This document shows positions 15,985 through 34,375 of a stretch of DNA of 34,510 bases, piece after piece. The notes beneath the pieces were generated by a model that saw only the letters and a list, made by a program, of their open reading frames with translations, was not told where the DNA came from and made no database searches. Numbering within the stretch: position 1 is the stretch's first letter; each line of letters begins with the position of its first letter. The stretch spans positions 1-34,510 of the forward strand of contig DATDTY010000001.1 in NCBI GenBank assembly GCA_035290625.1, in the 5' to 3' direction. This DNA comes from Candidatus Nanoarchaeia archaeon (GTDB taxonomy: Archaea > Nanobdellota > Nanobdellia > Woesearchaeales > DATDTY01). The translations under genes and the position numbers were made by a program.

Positions 15985-15986
15985 CA

Positions 15987-16883: not shown

Positions 16884-16884
16884 C

Positions 16885-17850
16885 ATGTATCAGTATATCG
16901 GAAAGCTCTACCCTGCTCCATTGAAGAAACGCCTTGAGAAACTCTTGTCCTATTCCAAAATCAGGACAGAGCGTGACAGCCTTATCGGATTTACAGCCCT
17001 GACCACCCTTCTCCTTGCCTTGCTTGCAGGCTTTGGCCTTGGATACCTGTTCAGCATTTCAGCGCTGCTTGTCTTCCTCCTGGCTCTGTTCCTGCTCCAG
17101 GCTCTGCTCTTTATCCTGCTCCTCCTCTCTGCCGAGAGGACTGCAAAGCTTGTTGAAAGCGTGCTTCCTGATGCGCTCCAGCTCATGGCCTCCAATCTGA
17201 GGGCTGGAATGACAAATGACCGGGCATTGTTCATGTCCTCAAGGCCTGAGTTCGGGCCTTTGGCCCATGAGATCAATCTGGTCGGGAAGAAGGTGATGCT
17301 TGGAGAGGAGCTTGAAGATAGCCTCCATGAAATGACTCGCCATATCAAGAGCCAGAGATTGGAGAAAGTTGTTGAGCTCATCACCTCAGGCACACGCTCA
17401 GGAGGCCAGCTTGCCATGCTTCTTGAGCATACCGCCGCTGACCTGAGGCGCCAGTCCATTGTAGACAAGAAGGTGAGGGCGAGCGTCAATATGTATGTCA
17501 TCTTTATTTTTATCGCAGCTGGAATCGCTTCTCCTGTGCTCTTTGGCCTGAGCTCTTACCTTGTTGAAGTGCTCTCAGAGAACATCTCTAGCATTGATCT
17601 GCCTCCAACTGTGACAGCATTGCCTATCTCCCTGTCGAAGATCAGCATCTCTCCAGCTTTTGTGATCCAGTTTTCAGTCATATCCTTGATCACCACAAGC
17701 CTGCTTGCAAGCTTTGTCCTCGGCCTTATCAGCAAAGGCAAGGAAAGCGAGGGATTCAAGTTTATGATACCCCTGCTCTTCCTAAGCCTCTCCCTCTTCT
17801 TCGCCTCCAGGTATATTGTCTCGCATGCATTGGGCGGGCTGTTTGGGTAA
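16885..17850 (+). CDS. Type II secretion system F / TadC-like pilus platform protein
   Basis: LPDALQLMASNLRAGM...RPEFGPLAHEI; start reassigned to ATG at 16885. Confidence 0.9.
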   Translation: MYQYIGKLYPAPLKKRLEKLLSYSKIRTERDSLIGFTALTTLLLALLAGFGLGYLFSISALLVFLLALFLLQALLFILLLLSAERTAKLVESVLPDALQLMASNLRAGMTNDRALFMSSRPEFGPLAHEINLVGKKVMLGEELEDSLHEMTRHIKSQRLEKVVELITSGTRSGGQLAMLLEHTAADLRRQSIVDKKVRASVNMYVIFIFIAAGIASPVLFGLSSYLVEVLSENISSIDLPPTVTALPISLSKISISPAFVIQFSVISLITTSLLASFVLGLISKGKESEGFKFMIPLLFLSLSLFFASRYIVSHALGGLFG

Positions 17851-17867
17851 GCTGCAGATAGGCATCC

Positions 17868-18064
17868 GGCTTCCCTGAAAATGTAGTTGCCGTCAATTCG
17901 TGAGGCTCTTATACGCTGAGACGCCAAACCGACAAGGGGGTCGTCCCACCCGGGGAATGTCGGTCCTCCAGAAGATCTTTGCAGCCGAGCCGGTGGCTAG
18001 CGAGCAAGCTCGCATTGCTCGCTTGCAAGCCACAGCAACCTCGAAGAGATTTTCAGGGAAGCCC
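17868..18064 (+). mobile_element. Structured intergenic element, copy E1
   Basis: 15-bp perfect IR GGCTTCCCTGAAAAT (17868-82 / 18049-63); 9-bp direct repeat TAGGCATCC (17859-67, 18065-73); shared core with the other copies. Confidence 0.85.
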
Positions 18065-18079
18065 TAGGCATCCTAAACC

Positions 18080-18087
18080 TTTAAATA
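18080..18087 (+). promoter_or_regulatory. Archaeal BRE/TATA box
   Basis: AAACCTTTAAATA about 27-30 nt before the ATGs at 18107/18110. Confidence 0.6.
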
Positions 18088-18106
18088 GAATATCTTTCTG
18101 TGATTA

Positions 18107-19750
18107 ATGATGAACACGAAGGTTCGACCAAAACTTCTGCTGCTCTGCGCATTCTTGATTCTTGCCCTGTTTGCAGCACAGATTACCTTTCCCGAAGAAA
18201 CATTTGTTGGGAAAGCCGCAGATCTGCCTGAATCAGATGCTTGTGAAGAGGCTGGCATCTTATTTTGCGGACTGATGGTCAGCAGGGATATTGTAAGCTC
18301 GAAGTTCACATCCATGGAACTCAGAGGGATTATTGACGAGACTACTTTGTATCCGCCTCTTGACAACTGGGAAACCGGCGATTGGAATGAGGACGACTAT
18401 ACTCAGGAAATACAGTACCCTGGACCTGACTTCCGCCTTGAGTTTGCTGAAGATCCAGGAGTTCGCGCATGCGGCCTTGAGGATGTTGTTGAAGAATTAA
18501 GAGAAGTAGCAGAAGAGATAGCATTTTTCAGGCTTTTGAAGGAAGGAGGGTATTATGATTCAAGGATCCATCATGTGGATAGAAGGTATCTCAATGAAGA
18601 GGAGCTTCCTGAGTTTGATCCAACATATACAGGGCGCCTTGCAGCAGATTTTTTGGAGCAATGCTCGGAGAATCCGGGGCTGGGAGGCCTGCATCCTCAG
18701 GAAGGAGGGACATTTGCAGACATCTATGGGCGGATTCCAACAGGAAGCTGCGCAATCATTGTTAACCGGGTCATAGACTTGCAGCTTTCAATACTTGAAA
18801 GGAAAAAGGAGGATATCCTGCGGTCTCATGTTCGGGAGGGAAGGTATGCTCCATTCACAGCGGAAGATTTTAATGAAGGGACTGAGGTCAGTGATACAGA
18901 CATATTTGAAGGGGCTAAGAGATTCGCCAGGAATTTTGACAGCGTATTTGATAGATGCAGAGTTTTCTTTAATAGATATAACGGAGATGCATCTGAGGAT
19001 ATCCTCTTTTCTCTCAAGCAAAGGTATTACGGGTATGCGTGTTCTGCATCAAAATCTGTATTTAGGCAATTTAACCCCCCTGAGGACGCACCACCAGTGG
19101 AAAGCCCAATTTATGGAAACGAACAGGGCATTTGTTTAGGCATATCCTCCACAGTCAACAGATTTTTCAGTGATGGAAAGTTCGTGGGAGGCGACTGTAA
19201 GATATCTCAGAGAGAATATGCTGACATGATAAGAGGTGAAGGATGCTTTGAAGTTCCCTGCCAGACCTTTAGCGAATTATTAACAGCAGTATACCCAAGA
19301 GGGAGCCATTCACCCCTCTCAGAGACGACGAGATTCCATCGTGAGCAGAATCAGGAACTGAAGGAATGTATGGCGAGAGAGGGGACCCTAGAAAGGAGAG
19401 GCACGCTGTTTGCGAGATGGTTTGAGTATACTAATCCACAATCTCTGCTGCAAATCGAGGAGCAGGAAATAAATTATTTTGATCTTCTCGATCGAATACT
19501 CGATGGCGAAACGCCTATGATATCAATTGTCGGCACTGCTTTGGGGCCCTCCCATTCAATTTTTGCGCATTCCTGTGATGATGTAGGCCTTATTGAGGTA
19601 TTTGATCCTAACTTCCCCGAAGATACACGTTATCTCAGATACACAGGATCAGGCACGTTTATGGAGCCAACGTTCTTGGAACCCGTCATTATAAGACATG
19701 TTGAGTCTCCTTACACCCCCAGAAACATCTGCCATGAGGAATCTCCTTGA
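18107..19750 (+). CDS. Exported acidic Cys-rich protein with probable C-terminal papain-like peptidase domain
   Basis: Signal/TM segment at N-terminus; GICLGIS (Cys), SHSIFA (His), VFDPN (Asp). Confidence 0.65.
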   Translation: MMNTKVRPKLLLLCAFLILALFAAQITFPEETFVGKAADLPESDACEEAGILFCGLMVSRDIVSSKFTSMELRGIIDETTLYPPLDNWETGDWNEDDYTQEIQYPGPDFRLEFAEDPGVRACGLEDVVEELREVAEEIAFFRLLKEGGYYDSRIHHVDRRYLNEEELPEFDPTYTGRLAADFLEQCSENPGLGGLHPQEGGTFADIYGRIPTGSCAIIVNRVIDLQLSILERKKEDILRSHVREGRYAPFTAEDFNEGTEVSDTDIFEGAKRFARNFDSVFDRCRVFFNRYNGDASEDILFSLKQRYYGYACSASKSVFRQFNPPEDAPPVESPIYGNEQGICLGISSTVNRFFSDGKFVGGDCKISQREYADMIRGEGCFEVPCQTFSELLTAVYPRGSHSPLSETTRFHREQNQELKECMAREGTLERRGTLFARWFEYTNPQSLLQIEEQEINYFDLLDRILDGETPMISIVGTALGPSHSIFAHSCDDVGLIEVFDPNFPEDTRYLRYTGSGTFMEPTFLEPVIIRHVESPYTPRNICHEESP

Positions 19751-19854
19751 TCTGCCACTCGTGTAAGACGTGAAGGCCTCAAACTCTGAACAGAAGATGA
19801 TTATAGTGAAGGTTAGGATGAAGGGCACAAGTGAACCGCTTACCCTGAACTGCG

Positions 19855-20538
19855 TCACTCCACTGTCTTTGACGTGTCAACCTCTATGCCTTCCTTTGTG
19901 ATGTCGAAAGGAAACGTCTTGTCAGGAATTTTTGTTCCCCTCATCTTGATCACTTCGAGCGCCCTGTTTCTTACTCCTTTCTGCTTCCTGTGGTAAAGAA
20001 AGATGATCCCATCCACCTCAAACTCCATCGCTGCAGTCACGCTTTCATCAGTCACATTTCCCTGGCTTGTAAGCACAGCAGTGCAGTCCCATTTGTTGAT
20101 CAGCTCGAATAACGCAAGCGCAGCCTCCTTCTTTGTAAGCTCATCCTCATACAGCAGCACAAATGATGTTATTGAATCAATAACCAGCCTCTTCGCCTTC
20201 ATCTTTTCGATGATATGCTCAATAATGCCCCCCCCTTCAACCAGCACCTTCTTTACCTGCTCAGGAGTATACTCAAGGAATGAGAACTTCCCTTCTTTCT
20301 CGTATTTCGCCAGATCCCAGCCAAATTCCAGCATCGACTCGTATACCTTTTCCTTCTTCTCTTCAAAAGTGATGTAGATCCCAGATTCTCCCTTCTTAAA
20401 TCCCTCTACAAGGAATTGGATGGCAAAGATGCTTTTTCCCGAGCCAGCGGTTCCCGCAACAAGATTGATAGAATTCTTCTGAAACCCGCCTTGCAGCAGC
20501 GTATCAAGCTTGGAAATTCCTGAAGAGACCCGCGGCAT
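19855..20538 (-). CDS. KaiC/RAD55-like RecA-superfamily ATPase (single domain)
   Basis: SSGISKLDTLLQGG, GTAGSGKS, YITFEE, RLVIDS, VIKMRG. Confidence 0.92.
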   Translation of the reverse strand: MPRVSSGISKLDTLLQGGFQKNSINLVAGTAGSGKSIFAIQFLVEGFKKGESGIYITFEEKKEKVYESMLEFGWDLAKYEKEGKFSFLEYTPEQVKKVLVEGGGIIEHIIEKMKAKRLVIDSITSFVLLYEDELTKKEAALALFELINKWDCTAVLTSQGNVTDESVTAAMEFEVDGIIFLYHRKQKGVRNRALEVIKMRGTKIPDKTFPFDITKEGIEVDTSKTVE

Positions 20539-20541
20539 TGC

Positions 20542-21264
20542 CTACCCCTCTTTCTTAAAGTCCTTCTCGAACAAAGAAAAGGGCAGTTGGTCATGGAATA
20601 TCTTGACGCCTTTTCCATCTATGGTAAAGGGGTAGATGTCAAGCATATGGTCCTGGTTCCGCATTTTTGCTATCGTAAGGATGCGCTCAAATGACGAGGA
20701 TCTCCGCACCTTTGAGAGGAGGATCAGCCCATCGAAGAGAAAGTCCTCAGGCTCATACTCAAGCTCATCAAGATGCGTAAAGGGCTTCTCTGCTGTGGCC
20801 ACAAGCGTGACACTCGCTTCTTTCATTCGCAGGATAAAGTCAAGCACTTCCTTCCTGTAGTCCATCTCCCCTGCCACATGGATATAGCCGAAGAGGGTCA
20901 AAGAATCCAGCACGACGCGTTTGATCCGCTTTTTCTTGATGATCTCAAGAGGAGTGACAATCGACATCAGCTTTTTTGACGAGATTGACTGTTTGATGAA
21001 GGTAAGCAGGCCTTTCCGTTCCAGATCATCCAGGCCGGGGTATATCTCCCTGCCCGTCTCGCGGATCGAATCAACTTCTTCCTCTGAGGTTATGTACAGC
21101 CCGGGCTCCCCAAGCTTGGCTCCAGCAATCATGAACTGCATCGTCATCATTGTTTTTCCGGTTCCAGGCGCGCCAGTCACAAGGACACAGTTGCCCTGAA
21201 GAATTCCGCCATAGAGAATCTCATCCAGCCCCGGAATGCCTGTTTTTATCCTTGCATGTTGCAT
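20542..21264 (-). CDS. KaiC/RAD55-like RecA-superfamily ATPase (single domain)
   Basis: KTGIPGLDEILYGG, GAPGTGKT, RVVLDS, IAKMR; start reassigned to 21264. Confidence 0.92.
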   Translation of the reverse strand: MQHARIKTGIPGLDEILYGGILQGNCVLVTGAPGTGKTMMTMQFMIAGAKLGEPGLYITSEEEVDSIRETGREIYPGLDDLERKGLLTFIKQSISSKKLMSIVTPLEIIKKKRIKRVVLDSLTLFGYIHVAGEMDYRKEVLDFILRMKEASVTLVATAEKPFTHLDELEYEPEDFLFDGLILLSKVRRSSSFERILTIAKMRNQDHMLDIYPFTIDGKGVKIFHDQLPFSLFEKDFKKEG

Positions 21265-21298
21265 AGACCAGCTACCAGCACAACTGATATAAAAAGAT

Positions 21299-21661
21299 TT
21301 AGGTCTTTGAGAGCCTGTCAGGCCCATTGAAGAACACAGCAAAAAACCCGGCAGCAAGGGCAAGATCCCTCACCATCACATCATTATATCCAAGATTGAT
21401 GGCAATAAAGAGCACATGGATAAAGGCAATGAAAGCTGCAACCCTCACAATAAATCCTGACAGGAGCAGAAGGCTCAAAGCAATTTCAAATACTCCATTT
21501 GCAGCGACAAGCAGGGTTGTGTTTGCAACAGCATCAGCCCAGCCAGGAACATAGGAAGCCCAGTTGTCCGGAGACGCCACCTGCCACACCCCAAACCAGA
21601 GCAGAAAGATTCCCAGGCTTATCCTGAGGATTACTGGCCCATAGGACGAATCAATCTTCAT
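21299..21661 (-). CDS. DoxX family membrane protein
   Basis: LRISLGIFLLWFG...GVFEI...RDLAL; start chosen by TATA spacing (21682 and 21673 also possible). Confidence 0.8.
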   Translation of the reverse strand: MKIDSSYGPVILRISLGIFLLWFGVWQVASPDNWASYVPGWADAVANTTLLVAANGVFEIALSLLLLSGFIVRVAAFIAFIHVLFIAINLGYNDVMVRDLALAAGFFAVFFNGPDRLSKT

Positions 21662-21704
21662 CCAACCACTCATATTCCTCATCTTTTTAAGGGTTTTTAT
21701 TTTG

Positions 21705-21883
21705 ATGGAGGTTGGTGCGAAATTGAAGGTTGCCATCATTTTGTGAGCAACATCGCTAATGAATAAGCATCGACATCGAGGGGGATGCCCCATGGAGGAC
21801 GAATGTCGATTATCACAGAGATATATGCCATGTGCGAACTCGATGGCAACCCGAGCATTGCGAGAATTTCGCACCAACCCCAT
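21705..21883 (+). mobile_element. Structured intergenic element, copy E2
   Basis: IR GGTTGGTGCGAAATT (21710-24 / 21865-79); inner stem GGTTGCCATC/GATGGCAACC; ATCGACAT...ATGTCGAT arm; flanking direct repeat unclear. Confidence 0.8.
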
Positions 21884-21927
21884 TTTTACACATAAACTTT
21901 TAAACCTGTTGCAGTTTCAGGTACACC

Positions 21928-22218
21928 ATGAATATCATCACTGATGAAAAGCTTGAAAAGTATTTTTCCATCACGCAAAGAGCGCTTCTGAAGGCAAAGG
22001 CAGTAAAAAAGAAAGCAGAGATTGACTTTGAAGAGAAGGCGCTTGAATTCCTTGACATGGCCCAGCGCTACTTTGACGATGCAAAACATTTTGAGAAGAA
22101 AGGGGATATCGTGACTTCCTTTGCCTGCCTGAACTATGCCCACGGCTGGCTTGATGCAGGAGCGCGGCTTGGCCTCTTTGATGTTGGAGGAGACTCAACA
22201 CTTTTTACTGTGGATTAG
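21928..22218 (+). CDS. DUF357 domain protein
   Basis: MAQRYFDDAKHF...FACLNYAHGWLDAGARLGLF. Confidence 0.9.
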   Translation: MNIITDEKLEKYFSITQRALLKAKAVKKKAEIDFEEKALEFLDMAQRYFDDAKHFEKKGDIVTSFACLNYAHGWLDAGARLGLFDVGGDSTLFTVD

Positions 22219-22682
22219 CGCACTCTCTTCACTATGCCCAGCACATCAGCGGCATGGCCTTTCGGCTCCACACTCCTCCAATGCTCTGCAATCCTTCCCT
22301 GAGGATCAATAAGCACAGTGCTTCTGATAACTCCTTCAATCTCCTTGCCGTACATCATCTTCTTCCCCCAGGCGCCATACTGCTTAATCACTCTTTTGTC
22401 AGGATCGCTTAAGAGCCTTACTGTTAAGCCGTGCTTTTCAATGAAGTTACAATGGCTTTTCCCAGAATCCGGGCTGATTCCAAGCACAACTGCATCGCTC
22501 TTGTCAAACTCTTTGCTAAGCCCCGAGAACTCGATTGCCTCGATGGTGCACCCCGGCGTGTCGTCTTTTGGATAGAAATAAACAACAACAAATCTCCCTT
22601 TCAGGTCTTTCAGGCAGACATCTTTCTCATCCTGATCCCTGAGGCAAAAATCAGGCGCTTTCATCCCTTTGGTGATCTCCAT
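22215..22682 (-). CDS. bcp: Peroxiredoxin, BCP/PrxQ type
   Basis: YFYPKDDTPGCTIEA, LGISPDS, RSTVLID. Confidence 0.93.
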   Translation of the reverse strand: MEITKGMKAPDFCLRDQDEKDVCLKDLKGRFVVVYFYPKDDTPGCTIEAIEFSGLSKEFDKSDAVVLGISPDSGKSHCNFIEKHGLTVRLLSDPDKRVIKQYGAWGKKMMYGKEIEGVIRSTVLIDPQGRIAEHWRSVEPKGHAADVLGIVKRVR

Positions 22683-22785
22683 GGCGAACAGTCAGAAACA
22701 GGATATATTTCCATGTTGTGATTTTTGCTGATTCCAAGAGCACAGATTCACAAACTTTATAAACGCCATCACAAGCCTTCACACT

Positions 22786-23493
22786 ATGAAACTCGAAGGT
22801 AAGTTTGAAAGTATAAGCATTGGGCTTGTTGGTGTGCTGGTTCTCCTCGTTGTTGCAAACCAGGCCCAGATATCGAGCATTTCAGGATCTACAACAGGAT
22901 CCAGCATAGGACTGGGTTCAGGCTTGAGGCTCGGCAGAGGCACTGCTGATCTTGCTTCAGTGGACATCAATGAGATCAGGTCAACAGCGCAGGGCATTGC
23001 AACGCTTTTCCCTGTAGAAAAATTATCAACAGCAGAAGGGGCAATGCAAGCCATGTTTCCGACAGGAACTCCAGAGTATGGAGATGCGATGGGAGTGACA
23101 TTTGATGATCCTATCGGAGCCTTGACAAAGCTCTCAAACGCCTATCCTGCATTGGACCAACAGGCAAGAGGAAATCCAGAGGTTTGGCAACGATACATTA
23201 ATCTTGCTTCAGAGCCAAGAGGCGTAAGCTGCGAGTTCTGCTGCGGTGTCGGAGCAGCAGGCATCTCAAAAGATGGCCGCTCACTCTGCGGCTGCCAGCA
23301 TGCTCCTGCTCTTTTAAGCGTCACGCTCTGGCTGCTTATGAACACAGACTACAATGACGCGCAGATACTGCAGGAAGTATACCGCTGGAAAACCCTTTTC
23401 TTCCCGAGGAATATGATTGAGCTTGCAGGCAAGGTTGCAGGCGGAGACAGTTCAGTGTTAAATGATTTGCCAGGAATGGTAGGAGGATGTTAG
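22786..23493 (+). CDS. Membrane-anchored Cys-rich putative metal-binding protein ending MVGGC
   Basis: N-terminal TM; CEFCC and CGCQH motifs; C-terminus LNDLPGMVGGC. Confidence 0.75.
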   Translation: MKLEGKFESISIGLVGVLVLLVVANQAQISSISGSTTGSSIGLGSGLRLGRGTADLASVDINEIRSTAQGIATLFPVEKLSTAEGAMQAMFPTGTPEYGDAMGVTFDDPIGALTKLSNAYPALDQQARGNPEVWQRYINLASEPRGVSCEFCCGVGAAGISKDGRSLCGCQHAPALLSVTLWLLMNTDYNDAQILQEVYRWKTLFFPRNMIELAGKVAGGDSSVLNDLPGMVGGC

Positions 23494-23494
23494 C

Positions 23495-23713
23495 ATGAAA
23501 AAGGAAGTATTGATAACCATTGTCTTGGCTGTCTTGGTATTGGTATCTTTGGTTCAGGCTCTCCAGCTGAGAAGCCTTAAAAGCCAGATTGAGACAGGTA
23601 GCTTTTCTGTGCAGACAAAGGCTGCTGCTACGCCAGTGGCGTCAGGAAGCGCCGGAAGCCCAGCATTGCCGCAGAGCCTGGATAACCTTCCGCAGATGGT
23701 CGGAGGATGTTAA
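23495..23713 (+). CDS. Small membrane-anchored protein ending MVGGC
   Basis: N-terminal TM, low-complexity linker, LDNLPQMVGGC. Confidence 0.75.
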   Translation: MKKEVLITIVLAVLVLVSLVQALQLRSLKSQIETGSFSVQTKAAATPVASGSAGSPALPQSLDNLPQMVGGC

Positions 23714-23786
23714 TCTTTTGTGAAGGGGCAGATTCTTTGTTCTTTTCTGCTTCTCATCTCTCAAGCATTGCTGCATTTGGGGATGG

Positions 23787-24248
23787 ATGATGAATGGTTT
23801 AATTCTTGGGATGTTATCTATGGTCATGCTTCAGGCTTGTGCTCAGGCCAGTGAGGATAACCCTGATATGCTGGCCATCAACCTAATGGACTATAAGACC
23901 TTAGCATTCCATATGCATCCTCATCTTGAGATTGAGATTCTTGGGGAGCAGTATGTCATCCCAGCAAATATAGGCGCATCGCGCCAGGCGATTCGCGTGA
24001 TCCACACCCATGAGCCTGACGGAACACTGCATGTTGAGTCTCCTTATCCTCATCAGTTTGTACTGGCAGACTTTTTTACAATCTGGGGAGAACGTTTTGA
24101 TAAAACGTGTATCTTTAATTACTGCATTGATGAAGAGCATGAACTCCTTGTGTTTGTCAATGGAGGGCAGAGCGATTTGTATGAGAATACCCCCCTCAGG
24201 GAAGACGATGAGATAAAGATAGTTTATAGGAAGTCTATAGGAGAGTAA
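23787..24248 (+). CDS. Exported His-motif putative metal-binding protein
   Basis: HMHPHL, IHTHEPDGTLHVES, LADFFTIWG. Confidence 0.75.
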   Translation: MMNGLILGMLSMVMLQACAQASEDNPDMLAINLMDYKTLAFHMHPHLEIEILGEQYVIPANIGASRQAIRVIHTHEPDGTLHVESPYPHQFVLADFFTIWGERFDKTCIFNYCIDEEHELLVFVNGGQSDLYENTPLREDDEIKIVYRKSIGE

Positions 24249-24275
24249 AGAACAAGAACCAAGAAGGGAATAGAC

Positions 24276-25271
24276 ATGAAGCTGCGATATCGTCTCATCC
24301 AAAGTGCAGGCGCTTTAAGCATAGCTTTAGCACTCCTCATAACCCTCTTTGCGCAGTCTGCAACAGCCCAGGATCTGCCTGTCGGCCTGCAGAAGATCAA
24401 TGAATACAACCAAAAGCAGGCAGAGGATATAGCTCTCAAAGTATCATTTGTTGTCGCCTTTATTGCAGGAATCCTCGGCATCTTCTCTCCATGCATCCTG
24501 CCGTTCCTTCCTGCCTACTTTTCTTACACATTCAAGGAAAAGCGGAATATAACTTTTATGACACTGGTGTTCTTTCTCGGATTCTCAGTCTCCTTTGTTA
24601 GTATGGGAGTGATCGCTGGCACGCTTGGCTATACAGCATTAAGCGTGATCCAGCCTGCGTGGCTTGTCAGGATAGCTGCTGTTGCAATCATTATCTTTGG
24701 CATCATGACCTTATTGGGAAAAGGGATATCCTCGTTCGTGAAGTTCAGGGTTCATTCCCGGAACGATATCCCAGGAACGTTCTTATTAGGCATATTCTTT
24801 GCTGTCGGATGGTCTGCCTGCTTAGGGCCTATATTAGCAGGAATACTCGGAATCGGAGCCGTATTGGGAAATCCTGTGCTGAGCGGATTCCTTCTGTTTG
24901 CATATTCGCTTGGAAATCTGCTGCCATTATTCGTATTATCTGTCTTTTATGATAGATTCAACTTAGGGAAGAGCAGGCTTATCAGAGGAAGGATCCTTCA
25001 TTTTTCATTGATGGGAGAAGGATATGAGGTTCATTCAACAAACCTGATCTCAGGAGTCTTGTTCTTGGTTTTGGGAGGGGTCATGCTGGCGTATAATGGA
25101 ACAGCTGCCTTGAATGCATTGGATCCTCTGAGGCTGTCAGAGTTCTTCTATTCAGGCCAGAATGCTCTGATTAGCTGGAAGTACAGCCAGATTGCCGGGA
25201 TTATGGCTTTGGCGGTGTTTGCGATAGGTGTTGGCTGGTTTTTGTGGAAGAGAAAAAAGGATTCTGAATAG
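24276..25271 (+). CDS. ccdA: CcdA/DsbD-type thiol-disulfide membrane transporter
   Basis: AGILGIFSPCILPFLP and WSACLGPIL conserved Cys motifs; multi-TM. Confidence 0.88.
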   Translation: MKLRYRLIQSAGALSIALALLITLFAQSATAQDLPVGLQKINEYNQKQAEDIALKVSFVVAFIAGILGIFSPCILPFLPAYFSYTFKEKRNITFMTLVFFLGFSVSFVSMGVIAGTLGYTALSVIQPAWLVRIAAVAIIIFGIMTLLGKGISSFVKFRVHSRNDIPGTFLLGIFFAVGWSACLGPILAGILGIGAVLGNPVLSGFLLFAYSLGNLLPLFVLSVFYDRFNLGKSRLIRGRILHFSLMGEGYEVHSTNLISGVLFLVLGGVMLAYNGTAALNALDPLRLSEFFYSGQNALISWKYSQIAGIMALAVFAIGVGWFLWKRKKDSE

Positions 25272-25302
25272 ATTTAAATATGGTCTGTGCTTTGCAATAT
25301 GA

Positions 25303-26121
25303 ATGAAAGAAGAAGTGCTAGAGCTTCTGAGAAAGCATACCAGACATGAATTTGTTGCGTTAACCCCTAAGGGAAATGCTTCGGTGTATGCTGCATTTGA
25401 GACAGTCAGGCAATTAAGCCAGCAGAATGTTGTGCTGATTCCAGACCAGGGCGGCTGGGTAACCTACCGCCAGATTCCCAGGAAGATGAAGATGCTTGCC
25501 TTTGAATATAAAACAGATTACGGTGTCCTGGACGCTAAAGGCCTGCCTTTGCACCTCCAAAATGTGAACTCCCTCATCTATTCCAACCCTGCAGGCTACT
25601 ATGCCGATCAGCCAAGCCAGGAAATCTATAAGGAATGCTCCCAGCGTTTTCCTGTCATCATGGAAGTGTCAGGCTGTCTTGGCTCAGAGACCTGCGATGG
25701 AAGGCATGCTGATATCATGATAGGAAGCTTTGGCAAATGGAAGCCGATCAGCATAGGGACAGGAGGCTTCATCTCCTTCAAGGCTGAGGAAGCCTATAAG
25801 GCCTTCCTGGAGAGAAAAGAGCATAAAGAGCCAAGCATAGAGGAGACAAAGCTCCATGACCTCTATGCCAAGCTTGAGGCAGCTCCTTCAATCTACAAGA
25901 GGTATTACGAAGCTGTCCAGCAGATAAAAAAGGATTTGGGGAATTTTGAGGTCCTCCATCCGAAAAGCCAGGGTATCAATGTCATTGTGAAGTTCAATAC
26001 TGAAGATGAGAAGAAGCTTTTGGTCCAGTATTGCGAAAAGAATAAATATGAATACAAACTCTGCCCAAGGTATATCAGGGTGAATGAGAACGCATTGAGC
26101 ATTGAGGTGAAGCATACATGA
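25303..26121 (+). CDS. PLP-dependent aminotransferase-like protein (DegT/DnrJ/EryC1/StrS-like, short)
   Basis: GSFGKWKPISIGTGG; VLIPDQGGW. Confidence 0.75.
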   Translation: MKEEVLELLRKHTRHEFVALTPKGNASVYAAFETVRQLSQQNVVLIPDQGGWVTYRQIPRKMKMLAFEYKTDYGVLDAKGLPLHLQNVNSLIYSNPAGYYADQPSQEIYKECSQRFPVIMEVSGCLGSETCDGRHADIMIGSFGKWKPISIGTGGFISFKAEEAYKAFLERKEHKEPSIEETKLHDLYAKLEAAPSIYKRYYEAVQQIKKDLGNFEVLHPKSQGINVIVKFNTEDEKKLLVQYCEKNKYEYKLCPRYIRVNENALSIEVKHT

Positions 26122-26363
26122 AGAGGGTTATGTTCCTGGTGGTCATTTTCTTACTGATAGGCTCTTTGATGATCCTAGGGGCGAGAGACATCTCCCTATC
26201 CAACTCAACAGGCAGAAAAACCTTTTTCCTCAGCTTTCTTGAGTGGATGGGAGTTGTGGGAAAGAGCAGCTATGATACTGCCGGCTATGCAATAAAGCAG
26301 GATTGGCTTCCGAACGTGAGCCAGAACAGCAGCAACAGCTCAATCCGGAAGTTGCTCCGATGA
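26118..26363 (+). CDS. Small membrane protein
   Basis: ATGA overlaps at both ends; N-terminal TM. Confidence 0.65.
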   Translation: MKRVMFLVVIFLLIGSLMILGARDISLSNSTGRKTFFLSFLEWMGVVGKSSYDTAGYAIKQDWLPNVSQNSSNSSIRKLLR

Positions 26364-26764
26364 ATGAGCCAGAGTCCATGGACACTCTTGTGTACTTTAC
26401 CAACAGAACCATTGGCAATGGCCATATCAAGGCGTGGGTATATAAGCAGCAGTGCTCCCAGTGCAAAGGAATGATGGGTAAGCCGAAGGGCGCAAAGGGG
26501 AAGGTAAAGATCAGGGCGCAGAATTATGTCTGCAATGAATGCGGATTTTCAGTTCCCAATGAAGAATATGAGGGCGGGCTCAAAGTTCAGGTCAAGTACA
26601 CCTGCCCTTCCTGTAGCAACAGGGGGGAGGCAGAGGTTCCTTTTAGGAGGAAGCGCATCAATGGTGTTGAAACCGTGCGCATCGAATGCAGCCACTGCCA
26701 CGCATCCGTTGACATTACAAAGAAGATGAAGGAGAAGAACGCAGGCGAGCAGGAAAAGCAGTGA
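26360..26764 (+). CDS. Double zinc-ribbon protein
   Basis: Four CxxC pairs (CSQC, CNEC, CPSC, CSHC); ATGA coupling at 26360. Confidence 0.8.
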   Translation: MNEPESMDTLVYFTNRTIGNGHIKAWVYKQQCSQCKGMMGKPKGAKGKVKIRAQNYVCNECGFSVPNEEYEGGLKVQVKYTCPSCSNRGEAEVPFRRKRINGVETVRIECSHCHASVDITKKMKEKNAGEQEKQ

Positions 26765-26788
26765 GGCCGAAAGCTTTGTGGATATAAC

Positions 26789-27592
26789 ATGCCAAAAGAC
26801 TGGAGCGACGAGTTTGTGCACCACTGGAATTATTTCATAGGTCCTGCCAGAGCATCTCCTTCTGACTTAAGGTTCATAAAAAAGAAGATTCTCGAGAAAG
26901 ACAGGGATGCAAAGGTGCTTGTTTTGGGAGCAACACCTGGATACAGGAACCTGTGCGGAGAGTTGGACATTCCTGTAACACTTATTGACTTCAAACGATA
27001 CAATTATGAGTACCTCTCAGATGAAGTCAAGAATAAACCAAAAGAGAGGTTTGTGGAAGGTAATTGGATGGATACAGTGCTGCCTGAGAAGTTTGATATA
27101 ATCCTCGCAGACAATGTTCTGAATGTTGTTCCAACTAAAGAGAATATACGGATTGTCCTTAAAAACGTAGCCAGTATGCTAAAGAAAGATGGGCTGTTCA
27201 TGCCGAGAACTTATGTAAGGGGAAAAAATGAAAGGATTGATCCTGAAAAGGTCATTAAGGAGTACAGGAAAAAGCGGGACGGAAGTGACCTTTACACATG
27301 GCTCTCAAGGGATTTATATCTGGCTGCATATGATTTTAAAGAGGATGTTGTCAGATTTAAGGATATCTGGAAGGTTATAAAGAAGATGCATGACAATGGC
27401 CTTTTTACTGATGAAGAGCTCAAAGAGTGGAGGAACAACTCGTTTGAGAATAGGGAATTCCATTTTATAATCCCTGTAAAAGAAGAGATTGAGGAGATTC
27501 TTTCAGAATTCTTCAATATTAAGCAGGTGTTCTGCGGAACCGAAGAATATATACACGAAACACTTCCGTTGTATGTACTTACATTGAAATGA
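26789..27592 (+). CDS. Class I SAM-dependent methyltransferase
   Basis: VLVLGATPG, LIDF, FDIILAD, MLKKDGLF. Confidence 0.82.
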   Translation: MPKDWSDEFVHHWNYFIGPARASPSDLRFIKKKILEKDRDAKVLVLGATPGYRNLCGELDIPVTLIDFKRYNYEYLSDEVKNKPKERFVEGNWMDTVLPEKFDIILADNVLNVVPTKENIRIVLKNVASMLKKDGLFMPRTYVRGKNERIDPEKVIKEYRKKRDGSDLYTWLSRDLYLAAYDFKEDVVRFKDIWKVIKKMHDNGLFTDEELKEWRNNSFENREFHFIIPVKEEIEEILSEFFNIKQVFCGTEEYIHETLPLYVLTLK

Positions 27593-27634
27593 ACCTAATA
27601 GCCCAGGTGGCAGAGGCAGAGTTGTTCCGGCTCA

Positions 27635-27859
27635 CTTTATGTTAAGCATGATCTTCGTGAAAAAGGTATTGGAACAAAGCCGTTGCAGTATGTTGAGAAA
27701 TATGCTAAAAAGAAAGGATTGAAAGAATTGAAATTAGGTTCAACTATAACCGCTTTAGATTTTTACAGAAATAGAGGTTACAAAACCATAAAGAAAAAAT
27801 ATTATGTGGTCCTTCAAAGTGTTAGAATACCTTGCATCCTGATGTCAAAAAGATTGTAA
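27635..27859 (+). pseudogene. GNAT acetyltransferase C-terminal fragment (not in the ORF track)
   Basis: LYVKHDLREKGIGTKPLQYVEKYAKKKG...ALDFYRNRGY; no start codon; in-frame TAG at 27599. Confidence 0.75.
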
Positions 27860-27891
27860 AGGCACCAAAACTCAATTGAAAGTAACAACCC

Positions 27892-28482
27892 TTAGATAAA
27901 CTCCTCTTTCTTCCGCTTTCTAAGCAGCAAGCCTATACCAAAGGCTGCTGCAAGCGCTGCAAGCAGGATAAGGGGGCCGGTAAGAGAGCCTTGATCAGCA
28001 GCGTTCTGTCTGCACTTGTAGAATCTTGTGTCACAAGCTCCGTTCTTACAGTCGCTGTCCTCCTCGCATTCTATCTTTGAAAGAGGCAGGACAGTCATGC
28101 TTCTCTTTGCATCAGGGCAGATCATTGCCGGATCATCAATCTTGTCTGTTATGATAACTGCTTCAATGCAGGTAAGGTAGTCAAATGTTCTCACACCTGC
28201 AATGGGGGGCCTGATTTTCCATGGAAACACTGCCTTGCCGGTTGCATTAGGCCCAAGCTGGAGGTTGGGATGGTAGGAAGCAAATATTGTCTTGGTCTCT
28301 GCCTCCTGGAGAAGGACAGAAGCGACATGCGTTGTAGCATTGATATTATTCCATATCAGGAAGGTTATGTTTGCTTCAGTCCCTTCCCTGCAGTGGGGAT
28401 CGCTGCACTGTATAGTCGAGGAAAAAGCCGCAGATACACTCTGGCTTGCAAGAACCAATAAAACGATGGCAAGGAAACGCAT
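27892..28482 (-). CDS. Exported protein with C-terminal membrane anchor
   Basis: Signal peptide, Cys-rich CEEDSDC...C...C, TM followed by RKRKK. Confidence 0.8.
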   Translation of the reverse strand: MRFLAIVLLVLASQSVSAAFSSTIQCSDPHCREGTEANITFLIWNNINATTHVASVLLQEAETKTIFASYHPNLQLGPNATGKAVFPWKIRPPIAGVRTFDYLTCIEAVIITDKIDDPAMICPDAKRSMTVLPLSKIECEEDSDCKNGACDTRFYKCRQNAADQGSLTGPLILLAALAAAFGIGLLLRKRKKEEFI

Positions 28483-28539
28483 TCCAGCGGAGTTAACAGA
28501 GGGGATATTTAAGTCTTTTGAACCTGCCTGAAATCAATC

Positions 28540-28701
28540 GGCGCCATTGAAAGGCAATGCAATGCCTCATCATGAGCCATTGAAGCAAGGTAGGAGCAGC
28601 GACAAAGGGGTTGCTCCACACGGGAAATGTCGCCTAGCAGCAGAATCTGTGATTGGCGAATCTGGCATTGCCGAGCGAAGCGAGAGCTTTTCAATGGCGC
28701 C
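28540..28701 (+). mobile_element. Structured intergenic element, copy E3
   Basis: IR GGCGCCATTGAAA (28540-52 / 28689-701); GGCAATGC/GCATTGCC; GCGACA...TGTCGC; CAATCG at 28535-40 and 28705-10. Confidence 0.8.
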
Positions 28702-28710
28702 CGCCAATCG

Positions 28711-28910
28711 GCTCAGTAGAAAGTCAGCCGGCATCAGGCTCGCTTGCGCTTGTATTCGTGTATGCTGACACCCCCGAAGGTGCTAAAAAGAGCTACGCTC
28801 TTTTGGCACACCAAAACGCCCGACGGCGTTTTGATTGGGGCAACCCTCTGTCAGCAGCGGTTATGATTGCGAAGAAGCTCGCAGAAAGGATGCCGGACTT
28901 TCTACAGAGC
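28711..28910 (-). mobile_element. Structured intergenic element, copy E4 (inverted, with apical insert)
   Basis: IR GCTC(A/T)GTAGAAAGT; 11-bp direct repeat CCCGCCAATCG (28700-10, 28911-21); closely similar to E6. Confidence 0.88.
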
Positions 28911-28968
28911 CCCGCCAATCGTTAAATTTAAATATTCAGAAAAGCCCAGCCCCTTCGGGGATGGAAAG

Positions 28969-29097
28969 ATGAAAAAGCAGAAATCAGCCCAAGTTCCAGA
29001 AACTGAGGAGAGGAAGTGTCCAGAGTGCGGAAGCAGGGATATTGGCACTGATGAGACTGAGATGTACTGCAAAAAGTGCGGCTATGTCTTTGAGTGA
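28969..29097 (+). CDS. Small TFIIB-type zinc-ribbon protein (42 aa)
   Basis: CPECGS...MYCKKCGYV; TATA at 28927. Confidence 0.75.
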   Translation: MKKQKSAQVPETEERKCPECGSRDIGTDETEMYCKKCGYVFE

Positions 29098-29218
29098 TGG
29101 CTGCTTCTTGATGGATAAATTCTACAAAACCTGCCCTAGTATACTTTTTTCACCATCAGCCCGCACAAAATTTATAAAGGATGATTGCTCAGAATAAGTA
29201 AGGGGGGTGGGTAAGATT

Positions 29219-29344
29219 ATGAACCAATCTAAAATCCATGACATCGTTGTGGTTGAAGATGGTTCGCTTATCCATAAGCAGGTCGAGCAAAGGCATGGGT
29301 TGCTCTTTATGCGAATAAAGAAGCGGCATGTCTTTGTGACCTGA
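29219..29344 (+). CDS. Possible small protein (41 aa, MNQSKIHDIVVVEDG...), not in the ORF track
   Basis: TTTATAAA at 29171 and G-rich SD-like GGGGGTG upstream of the ATG. Confidence 0.4.
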   Translation: MNQSKIHDIVVVEDGSLIHKQVEQRHGLLFMRIKKRHVFVT

Positions 29345-29466
29345 CTTGTTCTGCAGTTAAGAGTGGCTAAGAGTGGCTCTTGGGAGAACAGCACCTGTTT
29401 GTAAGCTTCCTTACAGAATAATCTACTGCCCCAAGATATGCCAAAGAAAGATTCTAAGATGAGATC

Positions 29467-29709
29467 CTAATGATACCGTAGAACACGTATCTCTTCATGC
29501 TGTTTCTGCTCTAAAGGCAGGTTTGCCTGCACTGCAACTTCAAAGGGATCTCCTTTATGATGCAGCAGAACAAGGTTTGCCTGCGTCTCAAAATAGACAA
29601 AATGCCTTTGCCATCCGTGCTTGTCAGGCTGGTAGAAGAGCTTTTCAGTATTCAGCTGCTCCGCAAGCCTAATGAACTCTTTCATTCCGTTGATTTGCAG
29701 AATAGGCAT
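29467..29709 (-). CDS. Hypothetical protein (80 aa)
   Basis: ORF with TATATAAA 30 nt upstream. Confidence 0.65.
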   Translation of the reverse strand: MPILQINGMKEFIRLAEQLNTEKLFYQPDKHGWQRHFVYFETQANLVLLHHKGDPFEVAVQANLPLEQKQHEEIRVLRYH

Positions 29710-29753
29710 AGCCCTCTTTGGGCGTGCATCATTTATATAGTTTCTTGTTTTAG

Positions 29754-29967
29754 GCAGCGTTCAAAATTTGGGTTGCCGCCTGCTTGTGAGCAACCTACCT
29801 AGAGTAGGCGCATCGACAAGGGAGTTGCCCCAGCCAAAACGCCATCGGGCGTTTTGGTGTGCCAAAAGAGCGTAGCTCTTTTTAGCACCTTCGGGACATG
29901 TCGATATACACAGATATGCAGAGATTGCGAACTTGGCGGCAACCGCTGAATGAGATTTTGAACACAG
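29754..29967 (+). mobile_element. Structured intergenic element, copy E5 (with apical insert)
   Basis: IR GTTCAAAAT (29759-67 / 29955-63); GGTTGCCGCC/GGCGGCAACC; 10-bp direct repeat CTTGTTTTAG (29744-53, 29968-77). Confidence 0.85.
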
Positions 29968-30141
29968 CTTGTTTTAGAGCCGAGATCATGATTACGAATT
30001 TCAAAATGAACCTCAGATTGCCTATAAGCACAAAATTTTCAGGTTGCAAAGCCCAGGGTATCAGCTTTTATCCTGATTTCCAAAAAGTTTATATACTAAC
30101 CACAAGTAGTTCACAGTAAATCCTAATACCGAGGTGAAAAA

Positions 30142-30288
30142 ATGGTGCAAGGGAGATGTATGAAATGCAAGAAGCAGGTTGATATCAAGAACGGTAAGGA
30201 GACGACCATGAAGAATGGGATGAAGGCAGTAAAGGGAGAGTGCCCATCTTGCGGCACAAAGGTTTTCAGGATTCTTGGAAAGGCTTAG
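30142..30288 (+). CDS. DUF5679-like small basic zinc-binding protein (48 aa), not in the ORF track
   Basis: MVQGRCMKCKKQVDIKNGKETTMKNGMKAVKGECPSCGTKVFRILGKA; SD GAGGTGA at 30131. Confidence 0.88.
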   Translation: MVQGRCMKCKKQVDIKNGKETTMKNGMKAVKGECPSCGTKVFRILGKA

Positions 30289-30295
30289 GCCTTTT

Positions 30296-31060
30296 ATGAT
30301 TGACTGCCATTGCCACCTTGACCACCCTCTCTTTGATAAGGACAGAGACCAGGTGGTTGAGGCAGCAAAAACATCTGGGATTTCTGTTATCATTACCAAT
30401 GGCATAGACCCTGGAACAAATAGGAAATCCCTGGAGCTTGCCAGGAGGTATAGCATTGTAAAAGCTGGCCTTGGCGTCTATCCCAGAAGCGCAATCAAGC
30501 ATGAGACTGAGCAAGAGGGAAAAAAGTACACCTCCTTTGATATTGGTGAGGAGCTTGGGTTTATCACAGATCATAAGAAGGAGGTTATTGCTATAGGGGA
30601 GGTTGGCCTGGATGGTGTCCGGGGCATCGATACTCCCCAAAAAAAGGACTTTGAACTCATGATTGAGCTGGCAGAAAAGCTCAAAAAACCCATCATTGTG
30701 CATTCGCGCAAGGCTGAAGCTGAAGTGCTTGCCTTGCTTGAGACCTCAAAGCTAAAAGTAATCCTGCACGCCTTTCATGGCAAAAGGAGGCTCGTCCAGA
30801 AGGCAATTGACAATGGCTGGTATTTCTCAGTCTCTACCCATATAGCCAGGAGCCAGGAGATGCAGTACATAGCTAAGGAAGCTCCCTTGTCAAAGCTGTT
30901 TCCAGAGACAGATGCTCCGTTCCTCAGCCCATTTCCAGGAAAGCGCAATGAGCCTGCTTTTGTTATTGAAGCAATTAAGAAGATTGCCGAAATAAAAGGC
31001 CTGGATATGGAGGAAACATCCAAGAATATCTGGAAAAATTACCAGAAGGTGTTTGTGTAG
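30296..31060 (+). CDS. tatD: TatD family hydrolase/DNase
   Basis: IDCHCHL, AIGEVGLD, IVHSRKAE, ILHAF, ETDAPFL. Confidence 0.93.
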   Translation: MIDCHCHLDHPLFDKDRDQVVEAAKTSGISVIITNGIDPGTNRKSLELARRYSIVKAGLGVYPRSAIKHETEQEGKKYTSFDIGEELGFITDHKKEVIAIGEVGLDGVRGIDTPQKKDFELMIELAEKLKKPIIVHSRKAEAEVLALLETSKLKVILHAFHGKRRLVQKAIDNGWYFSVSTHIARSQEMQYIAKEAPLSKLFPETDAPFLSPFPGKRNEPAFVIEAIKKIAEIKGLDMEETSKNIWKNYQKVFV

Positions 31061-31103
31061 GGAGCAAGCAACCTTAATATAGAAGGCTTCATTCCCCCTC
31101 TTT

Positions 31104-31931
31104 ATGCACAGGAGAGCTTTTCTGAGCCTAACCCTCACAGCAGCGGCTGCTGCCTGCACCAAGATGCAGGGATTAGAAATGACCATTGCTGATGCATCGA
31201 AAGACCACAGCAGAGCATTGCAGCTTGGCCGCCAGTGGATGGCTGAAGGGAAATTCGGCGAAGCCAGGGCTGCACTAGAGGTTGGTGTGCAGGGATATAC
31301 GCTCCGGCAAGACTTGAACCTGAATCTCTACATGTATAACGAGGGCCAATTTCAGCCCCTAACCCAAGAACAAAAGGACGTGCTCATGCAGTTCTATGAT
31401 GCCTTGGGCCATGCCTGCGCAGCAGCGCAGCAATTCTCCATTGCTTTGGGGTATTTCCAGCAGACAGTCTTCATCGATCCCAGCAACCCGGAGCATTTTA
31501 TGGCATTTGCAAAAACCAGCGCTGAGATATTTAATGATGAAGCAGCAGAGGGATTAAGGCTTCCTTATGAAACCCTCTTAAAGCGTCATGTTCGAGTCAT
31601 CCGATACCCTCCAATGGTTGTGATGAATGCAAGCGTAGCTGCATATTTAGAATGTGACTCCCGGCCTGGCCAATGGCAACTTGCGAATCAGGTATTCCAG
31701 GAATACACGAGATATCTAAAGGATGTTGCCATGGAGCTGTCACGAAGGGACATAGCATGTAGCATCCAAATCCCTAATGAAGAGAGCAACCAGGAAAAAT
31801 GGGATATCGCAAGGCAGATGTACCAGCAAGACCCTTATTTTACAGTCCGATATCAGAATTATCTCCCAGGGATGATCCATTTTGCAATCCCCCTGCAAGA
31901 AAAAAGGCCTAATACTTCAAACAGCCTGTAA
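31104..31931 (+). CDS. TPR-like helical protein with Tat/lipoprotein-like signal
   Basis: MHRRAFLSLTLTAAAAAC; ALGHAC...ALGYFQQTVFIDPSN. Confidence 0.7.
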   Translation: MHRRAFLSLTLTAAAAACTKMQGLEMTIADASKDHSRALQLGRQWMAEGKFGEARAALEVGVQGYTLRQDLNLNLYMYNEGQFQPLTQEQKDVLMQFYDALGHACAAAQQFSIALGYFQQTVFIDPSNPEHFMAFAKTSAEIFNDEAAEGLRLPYETLLKRHVRVIRYPPMVVMNASVAAYLECDSRPGQWQLANQVFQEYTRYLKDVAMELSRRDIACSIQIPNEESNQEKWDIARQMYQQDPYFTVRYQNYLPGMIHFAIPLQEKRPNTSNSL

Positions 31932-31947
31932 GATGCCAGGAATAACT

Positions 31948-32144
31948 GGCTTCCCTGAAAATGGCGTTGCCGTCAATCTGCGAGGCTCTTGACCTTAAAG
32001 ACTGAAAACCGACAAGGGAGTTGCCCCCATGGAGGAATGTCGGTCCCCCCGTCATATGCGCGGCCGAACCGACGTGCTCCGAAGGAGCGCCCGGAAATGT
32101 TTGGCATTTCCGACGGCAACCTCGAAGAGATTTTCAGGGAAGCC
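31948..32144 (+). mobile_element. Structured intergenic element, copy E7
   Basis: Same 15-bp IR as E1 (31948-62 / 32130-44); 8-bp direct repeat GGAATAAC (31939-46, 32145-52). Confidence 0.88.
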
Positions 32145-32189
32145 GGAATAACGCAAAGCCTTTTATACCTGTTTTGCCTATAAGCCTCT

Positions 32190-32498
32190 ATGAAACTGAC
32201 TCTGGACACCAAAGAGGACTCGCATGAGCATTTGAGGCACGTGATTGCGATGCTTCAGAGTATTATCGGAGGTAGTGAGCAGGACGTCCATGAACCTGGA
32301 CAGCAGCCTGTAAGTCAGGACCAAGGCTTTGTCAATCTGTTTGGTGATGCTGCAATCAGCCCATCGCCTCCTGAGCAGAAAAAGGATTCCGGCCTTGATG
32401 TTGACCCTGCAAAGATCCAGGACATCCTGCAGAAGGCAAGCTTAGAAAAGGCGCGCCTGTCTGAGACCAAAGAGTTCAAGATGGAGGAATATCTTTAG
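32190..32498 (+). CDS. Hypothetical protein (102 aa)
   Basis: MKLTLDTKEDSHE...; TTTTATA at 32161. Confidence 0.75.
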   Translation: MKLTLDTKEDSHEHLRHVIAMLQSIIGGSEQDVHEPGQQPVSQDQGFVNLFGDAAISPSPPEQKKDSGLDVDPAKIQDILQKASLEKARLSETKEFKMEEYL

Positions 32499-32546
32499 GA
32501 TGCATTTCATCTAACGCTTCTCGCCTTGCAGAACGAATTTAGAAAT

Positions 32547-32993
32547 CTAAAATCTCCACACCCTCTTCCCGTTTCTATGTATCGCTCTCACCCTGTGGAT
32601 AGGAATAAAAATCTCCTTGCCACGCTCATGGATATGGATGATATTCTTCTCGATGCGCCGTATCTGGGCTGCCTTGAACTCTATCTCCTTTTTTCTCACC
32701 TTATCCAGATACCTGATCCTGAACTCGTTCCTTTGCGGATGCGCCTGAACAGAATTGAGAATCTTCAGAGTGCCCTGCTCCAATCCTCCCAAAGGATCAA
32801 ACTCCTTGAGGATAATCCCTGAGAACGTAAGTATCGCCAAGCCAATAAACAGGCTGACAAAAGGCTCTTCAAGTATAGGCAACGCTCCAAACCCTTCCCA
32901 TATCCCACGCCAGAAGAAGATGATTCCTGTCGCTCCAAGAAGTGACCAGAGAAAATGCTTGTCTGACTCACGCAACTGATAGATACTACTCAC
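32547..32993 (-). CDS. Membrane protein with C-terminal MJ1316/DUF504-like domain
   Basis: Two TMs; IRYLDKV...FIPIHRVRAIHRNGKRVW resembles the IPxHR motif. Confidence 0.7.
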   Translation of the reverse strand: MSSIYQLRESDKHFLWSLLGATGIIFFWRGIWEGFGALPILEEPFVSLFIGLAILTFSGIILKEFDPLGGLEQGTLKILNSVQAHPQRNEFRIRYLDKVRKKEIEFKAAQIRRIEKNIIHIHERGKEIFIPIHRVRAIHRNGKRVWRF

Positions 32994-33044
32994 CTCTTTT
33001 GGATGCTTTCAGGCATTCGGGTATAAATACGTTATGGTTTTGTG

Positions 33045-33187
33045 GCTCAGTAGCAAGTCCGGCATCATTCCTGCGAGCTTCTTCAGCTCCATAAGCAGTG
33101 CTGACAGAGGGTAGGCCCCTTCGGGGGTGTCAGCATACACGAATACAGGCGCAAGCGAGCCTGATGCCGGCTGACTTGCTACTGAGC
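33045..33187 (+). mobile_element. Structured intergenic element, copy E6 (shortest, no insert)
   Basis: 14-bp IR GCTCAGTAGCAAGT; CCGGCATCA/TGATGCCGG; GCTGACA...TGTCAGC; direct repeat GGTTTTG (33036-42, 33189-95). Confidence 0.88.
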
Positions 33188-33272
33188 AGGTTTTGAGCTG
33201 CCGCCCAGGTATGGAAAGTTTTAATAACCCTCCATGAACCTTTCAAAAAATAATTATAGGGAGGTGCGCAGC

Positions 33273-34158: not shown

Positions 34159-34375
34159 ATATAAAAATCACAGCTTTAACCCAACCACTGCTGCAACCTC
34201 ACTTGGGCTTGACTCAAAGCTGTCAAAGCCTGTTAAGAATTTGCATCTCCGGCTGATCTCTTCCAGATTTGGATCTACAAGAACCAAGTGGCGCACCCAA
34301 CATTTATAAGTAAGAGTCCATTTCTATATATTTATCAGACCAAAACTATACTCATTTAAATGGCAAAAAAGGGTT

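Follow-up and report, generated by a model that had tools for sequence, protein, structure and literature searches.

The stretch of DNA considered here, called the window, comprises 34,510 bp (positions 1 to 34,510 of contig C1 of assembly GCA_035290625.1, from a Candidatus Nanoarchaeia archaeon of the Woesearchaeales) and carries seven short mobile elements, E1 to E7, which belong to a family of MITEs (miniature inverted-repeat transposable elements) and lie just upstream of TATA boxes. The assembly (G000) amounts to 1.37 Mb in 84 contigs, with completeness given as 100%; our own gene calls gave 1373 genes and a coding share of ~85%, and one TFB gene and one TBP gene are encoded. The TATA motif reaches its maximum 28–31 bp upstream of the start codons of these gene calls. 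Promoters were scored with a matrix for the TATA box and the adjoining B recognition element (BRE), trained on 296 sites out of 638 upstream regions; since these regions were repeat-free, the matrix is independent of the elements. In the window, element edges were taken from the terminal inverted repeat, the matrix gave the TATA register, and distance is counted from the element edge to the first TATA base. The elements and the promoters next to them are listed below, with target site duplication abbreviated as TSD and open reading frame as ORF; the MITEs are given without strand.

17868–18063: E1, MITE of 196 bp with 14-bp terminal inverted repeats; TSD of 10 bp (9/10 match) at 17858–17867 and 18064–18073; distance 17
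18073–18088, + strand: BRE and TATA of a 547-aa ORF (start 18107/18110), first T at 18080; 17 from E1
TATA 21691, − strand: promoter flanking E2, of the DoxX gene from 21661
21708–21881: E2, older MITE between divergent promoters; distance 17 on the left and 16–17 on the right; TSD decayed (6/9)
TATA 21897/21898, + strand: promoter flanking E2, of the DUF357 gene from 21928
28540–28701: E3, MITE of the 8-bp-TSD subfamily; TSD of 8 bp (5/8); 15 from TATA 28927 once the earlier state is restored by removing E4 and one TSD
28710–28911: E4, MITE; perfect TSD of 9 bp at 28701–28709 and 28912–28920; distance 16
28920–28935, + strand: BRE and TATA struck twice (by E3, then E4), first T at 28927; promoter of a 42-aa zinc-ribbon ORF
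29754–29968: E5, MITE; perfect TSD of 9 bp; 15 from TATA 29739 (− strand, ORF from 29709)
31948–32144: E7, MITE of the E1 subfamily; TSD of 9 bp (8/9); 16 from TATA 32160 (+ strand, ORF from 32190)
33044–33188: E6, MITE; TSD of 8 bp (7/8); 15 from TATA 33029 (− strand); second promoter 32 away on the right side
34372–34510, − strand: IS6-family autonomous element, end truncated by the contig end; the other end, at C62:140, shares a 9-bp TSD with it and lies 15 from TATA

A preliminary description of this DNA had placed seven elements near TATA boxes at a near-constant distance of 15–18. All seven are present, and although the edges given for E1, E2, E4 and E6 were off by 1–3 bases, the corrected distances are 15–17. 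The spread arises because distance varies as TSD length + 7: five of the seven elements obey this rule, E5 falls one short and E2 has no readable TSD. E3 and E4 are successive insertions, with TSDs of 8 and 9 bp, that used the same promoter-side target boundary to the base. The ORF behind their common promoter (28969–29097, + strand) encodes a stand-alone TFIIB-type zinc ribbon (PF08271). Tandem stacks at a single target, like E3/E4, were also seen at C33:72974–73300 of G000 and at loci L130 and L331.

Self-comparison of G000 gave ~300 repeated regions. A search for paired terminal repeats returned 122 MITE calls of 101–299 bp, with at least 10 of 14 end bases matching, of which two poor calls were dropped to leave a catalogue of 120 copies. 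These are short, non-coding, dispersed in many copies and duplicated at the target, and their terminal inverted repeats are 14 bp long and of the form GG-N7-(G/C)AAA. Among the 122 calls, 17 have a perfect TSD of 8 bp and another 17 a perfect one of 9 bp, with at most two for each other length from 4 to 12 bp; allowing 0–1 mismatch, a TSD can be read in 59 of the 120 copies. About 80 more repeated regions, many of them cut by contig ends or belonging to other families, lie outside the catalogue, E2 and E5 among them, and 12 of 22 single ends from outside it have a promoter at 14–18. The copies resemble MITEs of IS5-family (IS903-like) elements, which are 100–275 bp long, lack an ORF, have 14-bp inverted repeats starting with GG and show TSDs of 8–10 bp. 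Profile searches of G000 gave no match to IS1595, Mutator or IS903-type Pfam families, and no cognate transposase that would be the exact partner of the window MITEs was found there; the searches gave an IS1634 and an IS5-like element of another kind. The end type of the window MITEs flanks an IS5 transposase in genome G141 (NF033579, 143 bits, cut-off 140). The MITEs of the window were most likely moved by IS5-family transposases. Inner motifs are common to E3 through E7 despite differing end types, chimeric ends occur in some copies elsewhere, and E4 would fold into an elongated rod containing two inner hairpins (z = −6.0 versus shuffles).

The same narrow register is seen across the genome. 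Among 239 MITE edges scored for outward-facing promoters, the distance is 15 in 22, 16 in 43 and 17 in 17, with a single edge at 8–11. Counted per MITE, a promoter lies no more than 60 bp away in 103 of 120, at 12–19 in 93 and at 15–17 in 77. A check made without the matrix gave the same picture, in that 63 of 112 edges facing a start codon at most 100 bp away sit 43–48 bp from it, while edge-to-stop-codon distances are broad. Per base, the interval at 15–17 is ~100 times richer in insertions than other intergenic DNA (127-fold, assuming 600 promoters).

Could selection alone account for this, with random insertion and survival solely just upstream of the BRE in short gaps, as the preliminary description had offered for an alternative? 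The genome is densely coding, and a quarter of tandem promoters have at most 6 bp between the upstream stop codon and the TATA box, both of which would favor such an explanation. A random-insertion null was computed for 106 MITEs that are flanked by a gene on either side and have an allowed interval: the empty gap was rebuilt and insertion was permitted anywhere that spared coding sequence and promoter cores. Such harmless positions would place 9.2 copies at 15–17, whereas 67 of 106 are observed there and the maximum in 100,000 simulations was 25. The rebuilt gaps offer a median of 48 allowed positions, so they are not the short gaps that the alternative supposes.

Distance depends on TSD length. 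MITEs with a TSD of 8 bp lie at 15 in 16 of 24 cases, those with 9 bp at 16 in 21 of 30 and those with 10 bp at 17 in all four (p = 8e-10 for TSD 8 versus TSD 9), and a TGT-ended MITE with a TSD of 5 bp lies at 12 in three of four paired copies. When 66 insertions were pooled for which a TSD was called and a promoter stood no more than 25 bp away (eight MITEs that have a TSD but lack a nearby promoter were excluded), the slope was 1.0 and the intercept 7, with exactly 6 bp between TSD and TATA in 53 of 66. The relation holds for TSDs of 5–16 bp, in MITEs as well as in autonomous IS5-like and IS481-like elements. Because the target is duplicated, its end is invisible to selection, and a fixed end therefore points to a fixed cut: on the side facing the promoter, the position of the cut is fixed and coincides with the BRE's upstream edge, where the preliminary description had put the duplicated target. 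Selection would sense the element edge, yet, as TSDs lengthen, this edge shifts from 12 to 23 and the end of the TSD does not move; moreover, distances of 12 and 22 are evidently tolerated, yet elements with 9-bp TSDs avoid them. The selection-only explanation is contradicted by the relation and largely refuted, and we regard it as very improbable. Integration at the upstream BRE edge is targeted, as these observations support. Selection does filter the off-register minority, since those copies occupy harmless gaps, and because it purges off-target insertions into genes, the share of targeted events will be smaller than the share of targeted survivors.

The autonomous elements of G000 extend the relation to other enzymes. 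An IS481-like element (C24:15370–16323) has TGT ends and an rve core, and its transposase finds its best of four matches in NF033577 at 119 bits; as this is below the cut-off of 224 set for the IS481 family, we call it IS481-like. Nine of its 16 ends with flank lie at 21–23, and each of seven TSD pairs of 14–16 bp has one end at 21–23, six of them obeying TSD + 7 and the seventh falling at TSD + 8. This element, with 16 further pieces at contig ends, was recently active and split the assembly at several places; TSDs so long and variable are unusual. An IS5-like element (C49:19040–20006), which scores below the family cut-off, has both of its 8-bp TSD pairs at 15, and together with its MITE derivatives places six of 15 listed ends at 15–17. 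The IS6 element (C49:1–915), of which one end forms the terminus of the window, scores 126.7 bits against NF033587 (cut-off 125), carries a zinc ribbon and GG ends, and is assigned to IS6, with a TSD of 9 bp where the definition used gives about 8; the place of archaeal members within that family has been doubted, in the part of PMC6807381 covered here. Five of nine flanked IS6 ends lie at exactly 15, with a TSD of 9 bp (paired by eye). At C67:39801–39832 a 32-bp palindrome of two IS6 ends stands 15 bp from a TATA box and is either a minimal MITE or an assembly artefact. The IS5-like, IS6 and IS481-like transposases have the DDE core in common and differ in their N-terminal parts. Other repeats of G000 lack the register: none of 22 pattern ends of an AT-rich family lies at 12–23, three copies of a TA-flanked MITE have no promoter within 50 bp, and the ends of a repeat that we take to be IS200/IS605-like lie at 10, at 23 or near none.

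A further possibility is that the register arose after insertion, through adjacent deletions trimming the flank down to the promoter, or that elements carry a TATA box along with them. IS elements are known to cause adjacent deletions, and many copies of the catalogue have no readable TSD. However, the register is sharpest where TSDs are intact and deletion would destroy these, and the flanks, which differ from copy to copy, agree at each position with ordinary host promoters. We consider either process exceedingly improbable. Four contig-only sequencing runs showed no empty allele in which the promoter is unchanged and the target present once.

Outside G000, the register recurs in part. The MITE end pattern stood out in two of 200 other genomes, G126 and G115, and E4 as a DNA query gave no match in 30 relatives. 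G126, from another family of the same order, has 91 matches to the end type; the 55 loci retrieved from it yielded 56 distinct ends, 19 at a distance of 16 and 28 with no promoter close by, which is what far ends should show, and eight of nine TSD-paired insertions combine a TSD of 9 bp with a distance of 16. An IS903-like element in G157 lies at 16 in all four copies (termini aligned by eye). Among 68 metagenome loci with IS6 relatives, eight of 34 ends lie at 15 (one being that of G000 itself) and 22 are without a promoter. For IS481-like relatives, 27 of 54 ends lie at 22–23 in loci of the same order or labeled Nanoarchaeota, and eight of 25 in the remaining loci outside Euryarchaeota and Thermoplasmata. 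Automatic end calls on distant loci were often unreliable and such rows were left out of the counts, and no claim is built on unpublished genomes.

Several observations weigh against targeting as a complete or general account. Seventeen of the 120 MITE copies have no promoter within 60 bp. Convergent gaps, which the preliminary description had proposed to inspect, hold 10 of 110 copies versus 13.9 expected (p = 0.32), and seven of these copies are without a promoter; the objection thus holds in part, and targeting is strong but leaky, not absolute. Cryptic promoters near 26 off-register copies were not significant (p = 0.06). Targeted promoters are of ordinary strength and composition (strength compared for 83 targeted versus 337 untargeted, p = 0.81), where a model based on occupancy might predict stronger targets. 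The IS6 element sits one base closer to the TATA box than the other elements. In G115 only two of 15 pattern ends lie at 16, and in G141 the distances are 17, 18 and none. For IS481-like relatives in Euryarchaeota and Thermoplasmata the signal is weak (eight of 45 ends at 23–24, scored with the G000 matrix), and in G157 a distant IS481-like element has two of its four copies at 32 and the other two near no promoter. The copies of this last element at L176 and L178 have a 15-bp TSD, and 32 is about one helical turn past the usual 22.

The signal is one-sided: no mirror motif of the promoter was found on the far MITE flank (49 versus 182, p = 0.77; 0.65 versus 0.77 A of 3), nor on the far flanks of the IS481-like element. 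Insertion is blind to orientation (19 versus 22 MITEs with 42 unscored; 5 versus 4 for the IS481-like element), while all four IS903-like copies in G157 have the promoter on the same side. Genome-wide, A is enriched (42–52%) at positions −10 and −9 counted from the TATA box, outside the 7-bp BRE on its upstream side, in targeted promoters as in untargeted ones. A catalogued MITE lies within 150 bp upstream of two of 32 tRNA genes.

The transposases might themselves recognize the BRE A-tract and the flexible TATA box on naked DNA, with no host protein involved. Such direct readout would give the same fixed boundary and would make promoter strength irrelevant, in line with the equal strengths above. 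It is also consistent with a Methanoregula genome (16 of 39 matches examined), where a BRE-like A-tract has A at positions 18–21 in 68–72% of 29 ends, above the half expected of a one-sided signal, although background A may cover the excess; and with ISH6, which duplicates an AT-rich motif according to the part of PMC3942029 covered here. Three families, however, would have had to converge on the same 5–6 bp spacing, and the far flank has no mirror motif. Symmetric transposase complexes usually favor symmetric targets. We therefore judge direct readout unlikely, though of the competing explanations it is the principal one.

TFB binds the BRE border. Since the one-sided signal is common to three families and stands at this TFB-bound border, a site marked by promoter-bound TBP-TFB, or by chromatin phased by it, is the best explanation and in our view a probable one. 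The preliminary description had suggested guidance by TBP-TFB; of this, the targeting itself is supported, and TBP-TFB is the most likely cause. The transposase complex would be placed against the upstream face of promoter-bound TBP-TFB and would make its promoter-proximal cut at the BRE border, six bases upstream of the TATA box, with the far cut one stagger length (5–16 bp, specific to each transposase) further out. Repair would then duplicate the target and leave BRE, TATA and gene intact, providing a safe landing site in a gene-dense genome. The fixed nick would fall on the template strand, as general DDE chemistry suggests. Contact could be made through a protein tether or through an exposed, bent stretch of DNA, and a host-made DNA feature at the boundary is favored because three families with different N-terminal domains use one boundary. 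More generally, TBP-TFB may expose one phosphodiester at the upstream BRE border where IS5, IS6 and IS481-like enzymes, with staggers of 5–16 bp, cut in the absence of any common targeting domain; we hold this general landing site to be a serious possibility, just short of an even chance. If true, insertion sites would show, at single-base resolution, where active promoters lie in uncultured archaea.

Promoter-directed transposition as seen here resembles two known systems and is a member of neither. TnGBS integrative and conjugative elements, the ISLre2 family and the ISKra4 group (bacterial Mutator-like p-MULT 3/4) insert 15–17 bp upstream of the −35 box of sigma-A promoters, and contact with the initiation complex was proposed by analogy to Ty3, according to the same part of PMC3942029. 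As far as that part goes, they share with the archaeal elements the DDE enzymes, the fixed distance upstream of the promoter's upstream element and the intact promoter; they differ in that most p-MULT 3 elements are oriented, whereas orientation is unbiased here. The archaeal elements also differ from p-MULT 3/4 in facing BRE/TATA rather than a −35 box, in using IS5-like, IS6 and IS481-like enzymes, and in joining several families at one cut site. PF00872, the Mutator-like transposase, has no match in G000; the ISLre2-type family was not searched for. Yeast Ty3 is tethered by TBP and Brf1 (TFIIIB) and integrates 2–3 bp upstream of the start site (bioRxiv 10.1101/2021.07.27.453949, in part). 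The analogy to Ty3 drawn in the preliminary description holds for base-precise integration relative to TBP and a TFIIB-family factor, and fails for position, as Ty3 integrates downstream of the TATA box. Within the part of that source covered, Ty3 is moreover a long terminal repeat retrotransposon with a chromodomain, confined to Pol III genes, while the archaeal elements are DNA elements lying upstream of the BRE (edges 43–48 bp before start codons) at ordinary protein-gene promoters. Fixed promoter targeting is not mentioned for IS5-family MITEs in the covered part of the MITE survey PMC11602168, nor is promoter targeting in those of the IS6 reviews PMC7986276 and PMC6807381 or of a Pyrococcus paper. 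No archaeal report of promoter-anchored transposition was found in the literature searched, whose scope did not extend to subscription papers, ISfinder notes and supplements (e.g., the flank tables of PMC3942029).

The promoter-targeting elements known are each a single lineage that has a tether of its own. Here, one position of the cut relative to the TATA box is common to several transposase families that are unrelated, which points to a property of the archaeal initiation complex. Targeting of this kind explains how a 1.4-Mb genome carries well over a hundred mobile copies without promoter loss. Distance = TSD + 7 is a simple rule, testable in vitro with TBP and TFB. Promoters of uncultured archaea are marked by the targeting, which could also bias archaeal transposon tools or be of use to them.

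Some further features of the assembly were noted. An Rfam scan of the window gave no matches. A 356-bp repeat is common to the starts of two contigs (11–366 of the window and C37:11–366), inside large surface-protein genes, and an IS1634-family transposase (L002) lies on the 2.3-kb contig C61. The window also holds a pilus-type operon (13464–17850), made up of a type II/IV secretion ATPase together with two genes for membrane platform proteins, which stops 17 bp before E1; PF00437 was matched for the ATPase and PF00482 for the one platform gene that was scanned.

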